Virus record (IMG/VR): IMGVR_UViG_643348551_000008
Span: 1-44,793 of that record
Direction: 5' to 3' (one strand)
DNA: 44,793 bases
Source: a virus
Lineage: Duplodnaviria > Heunggongvirae > Uroviricota > Caudoviricetes
Below the pieces are notes generated by a model that worked only from the letters and a program-made list of their open reading frames with translations, had not been told where the DNA came from and made no database searches. Positions 29,057 to 30,514 of the stretch are shown here, one piece after another. The position numbers and the translations under genes are program-made. Positions within the stretch are counted from its first letter, which is position 1, and each line of letters begins with the position of its first letter.

Positions 29057-29165
29057 AAGCTGTGTGACGTAGTAATCACTCTTAACATCATATTTAAATT
29101 TTTACGTACGTAAACCTGTACGTATAACTTTATATTATAAAAATGCAACAACTATAATATTTTAG

Positions 29166-30360
29166 GGAAGGTGCGAATAAGCGGGGAAATTCTTCTCGGC
29201 TGACTCAGTCATTTCATTTCTTCATGTTTGAGCCGATTTTTTCTCCCGTAAATGCCTTGAATCAGCCTATTTAGACCGTTTCTTCGCCATTTAAGGCGTT
29301 ATCCCCAGTTTTTAGTGAGATCTCTCCCACTGACGTATCATTTGGTCCACCCGAAACAGGTTGGCCAGGGTGAATAACATCGCCAGTTGGTTATCGTTTT
29401 TCAGCAGCCCCTTGTATCTGGCTTTCACGAAGCCGAACTGCCGCTTGATGATGCGAAACGGGTGCTCTACCTTGGCACGGATGCTGGCTTTCATGTATTC
29501 GATGTTGATGGCCGTTTTGTTCTTGCGCGGATGCTGCTTCAAGGTTTTTACCTTGCCGGGACGCTCGGCGATCAGCCAGTCCACATCCACCTCGGCCAGC
29601 TCCTCGCGCTGTGGCGCTCCTTGGTAGCCGGCATCGGCTGAGACAAATTGCTCCTCTCCATGAAGCAGATTACCCAGCTGATTGAGGTCATGCTCGTTGG
29701 CCGCGGTGGTGACTAGGCTGTGGGTCAGGCCACTCTTGGCATCGACACCAATGTGGGCCTTCATGCCAAAGTGCCACTGATTGCCTTTCTTGGTCTGATG
29801 CATCTCCGGATCGCGTTGCTGCTCTTTGTTCTTGGTAGAGCTGGGTGCCTCAATGATGGTGGCATCCACCAAAGTGCCTTGGGTCATCATGACGCCTGCT
29901 TCGGCCAGCCAGCGATTGATGGTCTTGAACAATTGACGGGCCAGTTGATGCTGCTCGAGCAGGTGGCGGAAATTCATGATGGTGGTGCGATCCGGCAGGG
30001 CGCTATCCAGGGATAATCGGGCAAACAGGCGCATGGAGGCGATTTCGTACAGGGCATCTTCCATGGCACCGTCGCTCAGGTTGTACCAATGCTGCATGCA
30101 GTGAATACGCAGCATGGTCTCCAGCGGATAGGGCCGTCGGCCATTGCCCGCCTTGGGATAAAACGGCTCGATGACAGCGGTCATATTCTGCCATGGCAGA
30201 ATCTGCTCCATGCGGGAGAGGAAAATCTCTTTTCGGGTCTGACGGCGCTTAGTGCTGAATTCACTATCGGCGAAGGTGAGTTGATGGCTCATGATGTCCC
30301 TCTGGGATGCGCTCCGGATGAATATGATGATCTCATATCAGGAACTTGTTCGCACCTTCC
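29166..30360 (-). mobile_element. IS5 insertion sequence (1195 bp) with 4-bp TTAG target-site duplications at 29162-29165 and 30361-30364
   Basis: Terminal inverted repeats GGAAGGTGCGAA... at both ends; encodes the IS5 transposase. Confidence 0.9.
29312..30292 (-). CDS. insH: IS5 transposase InsH
   Basis: 326-aa [16 protein letters not shown]... matches recalled InsH. Confidence 0.9.
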
Positions 30361-30361
30361 T

Positions 30362-30514
30362 TAGATATTTTAGATATTTTAGATATTTTAGATATTTTAG
30401 ATATTTTAGATATTTTAGATATTTTAGATATTTTAGATATTTTAGATGTTTTAGATGTTTTAGATGTTTTAGATGTTTTAGATGTTTTAGATATTTTAGA
30501 TATTTTAGATAAAT
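30362..30514. repeat. 9-bp tandem repeat array (about 16.5 units: 9x TAGATATTT, 5x TAGATGTTT, 2x TAGATATTT)
   Basis: Directly visible; abuts the IS5 right end and lies about 175 bp upstream of the porin start codon. Confidence 0.95.

Follow-up and report, generated by a model that had tools for sequence, protein, structure and literature searches.

Insertion sequence (IS) IS5 is known to activate adjacent operons of Escherichia coli when it inserts upstream of them, as described for bgl, flhDC, glpFK and fucAO. Activation of glpFK needs only the 177-bp IB region at the 3' end of the element, which contains a permanent bend and a site for integration host factor (IHF) and has to be in the correct helical phase (PMC2753651). 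Activating copies are positioned at -126.5 for glpFK and at -99.5 or -169.5 for flhDC (PMC2753651), and for glpFK, fucAO and flhDC the promoter driving transposase gene ins5A is always distal to the activated promoter (PMC2753651, PMC11894529). Only bgl shows activation that is independent of position and orientation and that depends on H-NS (PMC2753651). At fucAO a fusion promoter is formed by a flanking CRP site at -61.5 and the weak ins5A promoter, and its transcription accounts for expression of the downstream operon (PMC11894529); the native ins5A promoter is extremely weak (PMC11677980). Hot spots for IS5 are Py-T-A-Pu (YTAR) targets embedded in stress-destabilised, easily deformed DNA (PMC5493358). 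Here we analyse an IS5-family element at positions 29166-30360 of IMG/VR virus record IMGVR_UViG_643348551_000008 (Caudoviricetes), all 44,793 nucleotides of which are hereafter called the window. The element separates an NmpC-like porin gene from the late genes of prophage PP_SE11-5 of E. coli SE11.

Two further described systems bear on this locus. The nmpC promoter of E. coli K-12, PnmpC, lies within ~200 bp of the start codon and is a typical sigma-70 promoter that is active in glycerol medium, is activated by Crp and is repressed by OmpR, IHF and MprA (PMC11677980). The IS5 copy located in K-12 nmpC is transcribed from PnmpC, and external read-through makes this copy the main source of IS5 transposition (PMC11677980). 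The late promoter of lambdoid phages, pR', is constitutive, and expression of the late genes is set at terminator tR' through antitermination by Q (PMC7547250). An earlier reading made from the letters of the window only, hereafter the sequence-only reading, had proposed that a copy of IS5 might activate the porin gene, by analogy with bgl, flhDC, glpFK and fucAO, or alter late-gene expression. We find that the element is ISKpn26, a widespread and active element of the IS5 group, and that its presence likely reflects a recent transposition into PP_SE11-5 which was ordinary and probably near-neutral.

An ISKpn26 copy inside a 9-bp repeat array

The IS is complete (29166-30360; 1195 bp; transposase on the minus strand) and bounded by perfect 16-bp terminal inverted repeats. 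IRR, at the 3' end of the transposase gene and directed toward the late promoter, is GGAAGGTGCGAATAAG (29166-29181, plus strand); IRL, at the 5' end and directed toward the array and the porin gene, is GGAAGGTGCGAACAAG (30345-30360, minus strand). Read on the plus strand the element hence runs from GGAAGGTGCGAATAAG to CTTGTTCGCACCTTCC, and matches to GGAAGGTGCGAAYAAG occur in the window at the two IS ends only, with 0.01 expected by chance. Size and ends are those of the IS5 group, which comprises elements of ~1.2 kb with 16-bp terminal repeats of the form GGAAGGTGCGAA(T/C)AAG. The sole long open reading frame (ORF) of the element (29312-30292, minus strand) encodes an intact ins5A-type DDE transposase of 326 aa, with Pfam matches to DDE_Tnp_1 (PF01609, E-value 4.5e-35) and DUF772 (PF05598, E-value 3.3e-21). 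The ins5A promoter proposed for IS5 elements (PMC11894529) has its counterpart on the minus strand, with -35 GTGCGA at 30355-30350, within IRL, and -10 GATCAT at 30332-30327. The 177 bp at the 3' end (29166-29342), proximal to the late promoter, are the counterpart of the IB region with its permanent bend and IHF site (PMC2753651), and would be expected to act as such in this element. The copy looks fully functional.

Many chromosomal and plasmid copies from E. coli, annotated as 'IS5-like element ISKpn26 family transposase', are 100% identical to the element over all 1195 bp, and 6173 blocks in the public collection list the exact transposase protein, often with multiple copies per genome. 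Identity with K-12 IS5B is 94.6% at the nucleotide level (63 mismatches, 2 gap openings), with six amino-acid differences in InsH. Differences are concentrated in the transposase gene's 5' leader, and the terminal 183 bp of the 3' end, counted from 29166, are identical to K-12 IS5. Isoforms of an IS share, by ISfinder convention, ~95% nucleotide identity or more, and 94.6% is less than the near-identity with the K-12 element expected of IS5 sensu stricto. By sequence comparison, the element is ISKpn26, a member of the IS5 group and not IS5 proper. ISKpn26 was named from Klebsiella pneumoniae and is known for disruption of mgrB.

The plus strand shows, in order, CAACTATA ATATTTTAG, ending in TTAG (29162-29165), the IS, a second TTAG (30361-30364) and a series of ATATTTTAG repeats. 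The left TTAG forms the final four bases of repeat unit 1 (29157-29165, plus strand), which was severed from the other units by the IS and was recognised from the sequence and the reconstructed empty site. Units 2-17 occupy 30365-30508, followed by a partial unit ATA that ends at 30511; 11 of these units are ATATTTTAG and five are ATGTTTTAG. Tandem Repeats Finder reports a period of 9 over 30361-30511, with 16.8 copies and 98% matches. In silico deletion of 29166-30364, which removes the IS and one TTAG, results in 17 units in perfect register. According to this reconstruction the IS is inside the first array unit and the array itself supplied the TTAG target. TTAG on both sides constitutes a 4-bp duplication at YTAR, and all 11 other fetched copies with matching flanks likewise show YTAR duplications (TTAG, CTAA, TTAA or CTAG), in flanks that have a mean of 65% AT. 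The sequence-only reading had described a complete IS5 with TTAG duplications, located beside the repeats and between the porin gene and the late-gene block. Completeness, duplications, place between the two gene blocks and membership of the IS5 family are borne out, whereas the exact element is another one and the insertion lies within the array rather than next to it.

The sequence-only reading had also suggested a comparison with related prophages that lack the insertion. This comparison identified five empty alleles with a single TTAG, which effectively refutes an ancestral junction. Three of these alleles (L011, L013 and L014) have 0 mismatches with the window over 500 bp left and 1300 bp right of the array, encode an identical porin protein and differ only in repeat number. 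UMNF18 and IMG/VR prophage L021 are more diverged and are also free of the IS. The occupied junction is rare. A 140-bp query spanning the left junction identified no place covering at least 80% of it among 5426 complete E. coli genomes, a 2.8-kb query against E. coli genomes gave artefactual joins only, and the exact pattern of an array unit joined to the IS end had 0 hits in metagenome contigs. The best match of the 140-bp query, in strain 1517k (79%), was rejected, being an unrelated insertion between cutC and torY with a CTAA duplication and an AT-rich flank that matches by chance. The rarity of the junction and the 100% identity of the IS to other copies point to a recent event that is private to the SE11 lineage. 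The comparisons thus indicate that this is a true insertion, recent and rare. The alternative, in which the junction is ancestral or an assembly artefact and no real insertion took place, could draw on short-read contig L034, which joins the same IS to another right-hand flank, since joins through an IS repeat can be ambiguous. It is at odds with the perfect 4-bp duplication, with the exact restoration of the array register upon excision, with the three empty alleles that have identical flanks and with the same arrangement in the finished SE11 chromosome, and is effectively refuted.

The position within the array agrees with what is described for IS5 targets. Nearest-neighbour energies identify the array as the least stable 50-, 100- and 150-bp window of the reconstructed empty prophage, with a 100-bp stability of -0.948 kcal per step versus a mean of -1.443 (sd 0.097). 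No other stretch is as AT-rich (89% AT over 100 bp) or as dense in YTAR, with 18 per 200 bp compared to a mean of 1.13. The 582-bp intergenic region as a whole has 50 YTAR per kb versus 5.7 for the whole window. Hence, target choice explains the position, given that the array offers the target 17 times in DNA that is the least stable and the richest in AT of the prophage, and selection need not be invoked.

The array is in itself a hypervariable variable number tandem repeat (VNTR). Prophages with the same or nearly the same porin have 3, 3, 6, 9, 12, 12, 13 and 17 units, as determined for the window, L002, L011, L013-L016 and L021. Since three of these VNTR alleles have flanks identical to those of the window, the array changes faster than point mutations accumulate. 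The five-unit block of ATGTTTTAG is found in SE11 only. Expansion of the array driven by the IS was considered and dismissed, as no evidence was found for it and alleles without IS have up to 13 units. Two plus-strand ORFs of 77 aa (30346-30579) and 73 aa (30291-30512) cross the array, one of which is annotated as an SE11 gene; most likely both are translation artefacts of the repeats. A search with a three-unit array pattern gave only unrelated taxa among species-representative genomes (e.g. Helicobacter and Gardnerella), which are chance AT-rich repeats, and one additional three-unit allele (L021) among viral contigs.

The control regions on either side of the element

The porin gene (30690-31772, plus strand) is intact and encodes an NmpC/Lc/OmpD-like protein of 360 aa (Pfam Porin_1, E-value 1.1e-149) whose relatives are annotated as OmpC, OmpD or NmpC. 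The last IS base (30360) is separated from its ATG by 329 bp, in agreement with the ~330 bp of the sequence-only reading. The porin-proximal ~150 bp align with the upstream regions of K-12 nmpC, NH-21 and phage PhiR34_1, and a block conserved with these three contains the predicted porin core promoter (30602-30632, plus strand), which consists of -35 TTGAAA at 30602-30607 and an A/T-rich -10 region at ~30625-30632, 17-19 bp downstream of the conserved TTGAAA. In K-12 an upstream region of 199-210 bp was deleted or replaced as PnmpC (PMC11677980), and the predicted promoter falls within the counterpart of that region. A perfect CRP-type site TGTGATATTGATCACA (30558-30573, plus strand), recognised by consensus, aligns with the nmpC/DLP12 upstream region; it lies ~72 bp upstream of the predicted porin start, which fits the reported Crp activation of K-12 nmpC. 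The interval between array and ATG measures 181 bp and is constant in length among alleles. The predicted porin start is ~278 bp from the IS, which thereby is outside the CRP site, the core promoter and the remaining 16 array units.

Three side observations concern the same region. The porin promoter is at least 127 bp downstream of the VNTR. The promoter scan also returned a plus-strand, promoter-like TTTATA-18-TATAAT (29129-29158, 10/12 matches), which faces the porin gene and has its predicted start approximately at the IS junction. At the other end of the porin gene, the terminator at 31911-31928 has a T-run on the plus strand only.

On the late side, the promoter scan identified a pR'-like promoter (29087-29114, minus strand) with -35 TTTACG at 29114-29109 and -10 TATGAT at 29092-29087, separated by a 16-bp spacer with palindrome ACGTACGT. 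Transcription is predicted to start near 29080, which puts the IS boundary at about -86. From the -35 downstream, the sequence, including a hairpin and U-run, is conserved with DLP12, PhiR34_1 and other prophages with a QuuD-type Q, while upstream of the -35 there is no relatedness; in Stx and phiP27 phages it is the part downstream of the -10 that is shared. Sister prophages that have another Q (115/116 aa and not 127 aa) and other cargo show the same architecture with a late block that is ~98% identical. In these prophages with a Q of 115/116 aa the spacer palindrome (29093-29108, minus strand) is CGCGTACGC rather than ACGTACGT, which makes it a candidate Q-binding element that varies with the Q allele. 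Promoter and terminator directly before the first late gene, co-varying with the Q allele, are what characterises a lambdoid late control region. The tR'-like hairpin with an 8-U run (29031-29053, minus strand), which would terminate the short late-promoter transcript, is conserved across relatives, and the homologous hairpin of phage SfV is annotated as a putative rho-independent terminator ~100 bp after Q. The hairpin of the present allele is weak: it folds no better than shuffled sequences (z = -0.9), was missed by the terminator scan and has ~4 G-C pairs before the U8 run versus five in DLP12-type alleles. Termination may thus be leaky, the assignment resting on conservation and the SfV annotation. 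We read 29114-29031 as a pR'/tR' module, at which antitermination would depend on Q. A scan of 28500-31000 against Rfam with E-values up to 1 gave no match; accordingly, the short late-promoter transcript and the array correspond to no described RNA family.

The TATAAT that the sequence-only reading had placed ~27 bp from the IS, facing the late genes, is present on the minus strand at 29139-29134, at 26 bp. As a late promoter it was rejected: the hexamer 17 bp upstream, AAATAT, makes no usable -35, the promoter scan did not return it and related late regions lack the sequence in which it lies. Farther from the IS by 52 bp is the conserved late promoter, which is intact. An outward hybrid promoter at the junction of IRR and flank was looked for as well; no convincing -35/-10 pair was found by eye and none was returned by the promoter scan.

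Both regulatory proposals can be compared with the described IS5 insertions. Up-regulation of the porin gene is suggested by an upstream IS whose AT-rich surroundings are plausible as an H-NS target, by an unchanged IB region, and by the precedent of bgl, where neither position nor orientation matters (PMC2753651). The shared properties with the glpFK and flhDC insertions are indeed several, namely a place upstream of a promoter, an AT-rich control region, a YTAR site and an unchanged IB sequence. Yet with the porin gene as target both orientation and distance are wrong. IRL and the ins5A promoter face the porin gene and ins5A is divergent from it, so that the ins5A promoter is proximal and IB distal, the reverse of glpFK, fucAO and flhDC; the junction is at about -278 rather than -99.5 to -169.5 and 329 bp from the ATG, where activation would require some 100-170 bp upstream of the start. 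The AT-rich array, which is the best candidate for a putative silencer, still lies between IS and porin promoter almost entirely and was not removed. The homologous promoter of K-12, PnmpC, is natively active, depends on Crp and is not cryptic (PMC11677980), and the CRP site is perfect here; none of the 5426 genomes has an IS in the array, which gives no sign of recurrent selection; and the IS5-family hits at related porin loci are disruptive. The analogy with bgl, flhDC, glpFK and fucAO, for three of which the orientation is wrong, is not supported for the porin gene, whose control elements are intact. We consider activation of the porin gene very unlikely, and the H-NS-dependent route of the bgl type would be its sole remaining possibility.

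The same geometry looks different from the late genes. Here the orientation is that of the activating insertions, since the ins5A promoter is distal, IB is intact and proximal, ins5A is co-directional with the late genes, and the IB end, at 29166, precedes the predicted late start by about 86 bp. Late-gene expression might therefore be altered either through action of the bent, IHF-binding 3' end on pR', as at glpFK, or through read-out from ins5A as from the fusion promoter at fucAO, in which case the A+T-rich array might serve as an UP-like element that boosts the ins5A promoter. The fucAO insertion shares with the present one that ins5A is co-directional with the downstream operon, here the late genes, and that flanking DNA abuts IRL; transcription from its 5' end accounts for downstream expression there (PMC11894529), and the weak tR' hairpin of this allele would be favourable to such a route. 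The differences are that here the 9-bp array forms the flank, that the IS is followed by a terminator, tR', and that a CRP site is missing near -61.5 of the ins5A start, the single one present being ~245 bp away. Although the geometry of glpFK and flhDC resembles the pR' side, pR' acts constitutively and its control is by termination, at tR' (PMC7547250), and a gain in promoter strength should not by itself open the late operon; transcripts derived from the IS are not modified by Q and would meet tR'. The native ins5A promoter is moreover extremely weak, and activation of the glpFK type would depend on a suitable helical phase. The possible alteration of late-gene expression put forward by the sequence-only reading thus has orientation and an intact IB in its favour, whereas little effect is to be expected with a constitutive promoter that is controlled at its terminator. 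We consider it unlikely.

This leaves a recent and ordinary transposition as the preferred explanation. The DDE transposase would have cut the target at TTAG, one of its preferred Py-T-A-Pu sites, and gap repair would have duplicated TTAG. The IS occupies the divergent control region of a porin gene that is phage cargo (a 'moron') and stands in antisense between Q and the late promoter; no ORF is interrupted. The array, CRP site and core promoter are left on the porin side and the pR'-like promoter and terminator on the late side, the two sides being 1.2 kb further apart. Transposase gene ins5A runs in the direction of the late genes; its bent, IHF-binding 3' end precedes the predicted late start by ~86 bp, and the end with the weak ins5A promoter abuts the array. 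The immediate effect on expression of porin and late genes would be small. The main consequence would be a new portable homology and source of transposase in the prophage, which can seed deletions and rearrangements as at related loci, and the transposase may be transcribed by leftward read-through during induction.

Several points weigh against an insertion that is both explained by target choice and near-neutral. The small immediate effect is what we infer. The ranking of the array by stability is a nearest-neighbour proxy and not a true calculation of stress-induced duplex destabilisation (SIDD). The IS took the first of 17 equivalent TTAG sites, for which the prior is 1 in 17, and that choice is left unexplained. 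A position of about -86 in activating orientation is comparable to -99.5 of flhDC and -126.5 of glpFK, so that a change in pR' activity is possible, and the weak tR' might let extra leftward transcription leak into the late block. If the promoter-like site at 29129-29158 were a real distal porin promoter, it would have been cut off by the IS.

In itself the insertion has little significance, as it adds one copy of an insertion sequence that is very common already: the element is known, the genome is published and annotated, the site is predicted by target rules, and neither a gene nor a recognisable promoter is disrupted. It does provide a clean, datable example of IS5-family targeting of YTAR in easily melted DNA, with empty alleles that are otherwise identical. 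It also cautions that 'IS5 upstream of a gene' need not mean activation, since orientation and distance decide and both are against the porin gene here. Slightly more interest attaches to the surroundings, which comprise a hypermutable 9-bp VNTR in the region controlling the porin gene and, between Q and the late promoter, a cargo slot with genes that differ among sister prophages. More speculatively, and with low probability, ISKpn26 could raise Q-independent transcription past the weak tR' into the first late ORF, the methyltransferase gene and the lysis genes; or induction could drive read-through into the transposase gene, coupling IS mobility to prophage induction; or, more broadly, the hypermutable array, with its 3-17 tandem copies of the IS5 target, could serve as a landing pad that draws IS5-family elements to the control region of porin gene and late promoter.

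The host prophage and its cargo slot

A look-up with the porin protein showed that 26690-35772 of the window is identical to a 9083-bp locus of AP009240.1 (E. coli SE11). By offset, window base 1 corresponds to 2,122,554, the published start of PP_SE11-5, which has been described as a lambda-like prophage of 44.8 kb integrated at yecE (PMC2608844). PP_SE11-1 and PP_SE11-5 share an almost identical segment of 23 kb with a second nmpC homologue (PMC2608844). Exact-protein look-ups of the porin and the methyltransferase gave a single place in SE11 each, in PP_SE11-5; since only this copy matched exactly, the paralogue in PP_SE11-1 differs by at least one residue.

The phage reads along the minus strand of the window, from the integrase and early genes at the right through the replication genes to Q, followed by the porin gene in antisense (plus strand). 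Further leftward are the array and IS, a 65-aa ORF, a DNA methyltransferase gene, tRNA-Gly, holins and endolysin, terminase, and head and tail genes. The QuuD-type antiterminator Q (31960-32343, minus strand; 127 aa; Pfam Phage_antitermQ, E-value 2.8e-54) is 87% identical to K-12 QuuD. The first ORF of the late block (28711-28908, minus strand; 65 aa) has no Pfam match and no assigned function, and the methyltransferase (27514-28560, minus strand; 348 aa) matches N6_N4_Mtase with an E-value of 3.9e-45. The leader of the late operon, between methyltransferase and holins, also contains tRNA-Gly (UCC) at 27179-27253 and a TerB-like ORF at 26075-26500, both on the minus strand; UMNF18 has tRNA-Gly and tRNA-Thr at the same place.

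The interval from Q to pR' (29115-31959 in the window) is a cargo slot, the contents of which are antisense to the late genes. In avian pathogenic E. coli (APEC) E19035 it contains three ORFs of 350, 130 and 221 aa without assigned function (L010, 9262-11369), and in three other assemblies a single ORF of 427 aa (L031, 2613-3896). Homology among prophages that differ in the slot restarts at about the -35 of the late promoter.

Porin loci of this type are hit by IS5-family elements repeatedly and usually destructively. K-12 has IS5 within nmpC. In AF14 and 2017.15.02CC the porin gene is split at codon 5 by an IS5-family element with a TTAA duplication, and STK39-3-E has an IS5-family element between porin gene and Q. 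In 23CRST009 an IS is found just downstream of tR', with mismatched flanks, and the prophage, truncated beside the IS, has lost its late side. Logan contig DRR354993 (L034) is 100% identical to 27218-30363 of the window and thus contains the same late-side junction and the whole IS. Beyond IRL, L034 1-935 contains a yad-type fimbrial gene next to panBC, and the flanking tetranucleotides are TTAA versus CTAA; the join could have arisen by rearrangement between two IS copies in a related strain or else during assembly, through the repeat. No intrinsic terminator against leftward transcription was detected between Q and the 3' end of the porin gene. Leftward transcription from the Q side could thus reach ins5A in the sense direction, and read-through may drive ins5A transcription in PP_SE11-5 in the way known from K-12 nmpC.

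Comparison with related phages and IS copies

The order of Q, antisense porin gene, promoter-terminator block and late genes is the same in lambdoid phages with a porin moron, namely DLP12 with nmpC, PA-2 of the lc type and PhiR34_1 with OmpD, and the promoter block is conserved among them. The present locus differs in that other sequence, with the 9-bp VNTR, replaces the upstream half of the region controlling the porin gene, and in that the late block starts with a 65-aa ORF and a methyltransferase gene, as it does in SfV and Stx phages. Annotated copies of ISKpn26 have the same sequence, inverted repeats and YTAR duplication, and the insertion site alone is particular to this strain. K-12 IS5, such as IS5B/insH2 in DLP12 nmpC, shares with the SE11 element its length, the 16-bp ends, the 3' 183 bp including IB and the -35 and -10 of ins5A. 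K-12 IS5B resembles it also in having a TTAG duplication and in its prophage location, a porin locus with Q on one side and the lysis genes on the other. It is, however, within the 3' end of nmpC, co-oriented with and inactivating that gene, whereas the SE11 copy is upstream of the porin gene, divergent from it, and interrupts nothing.

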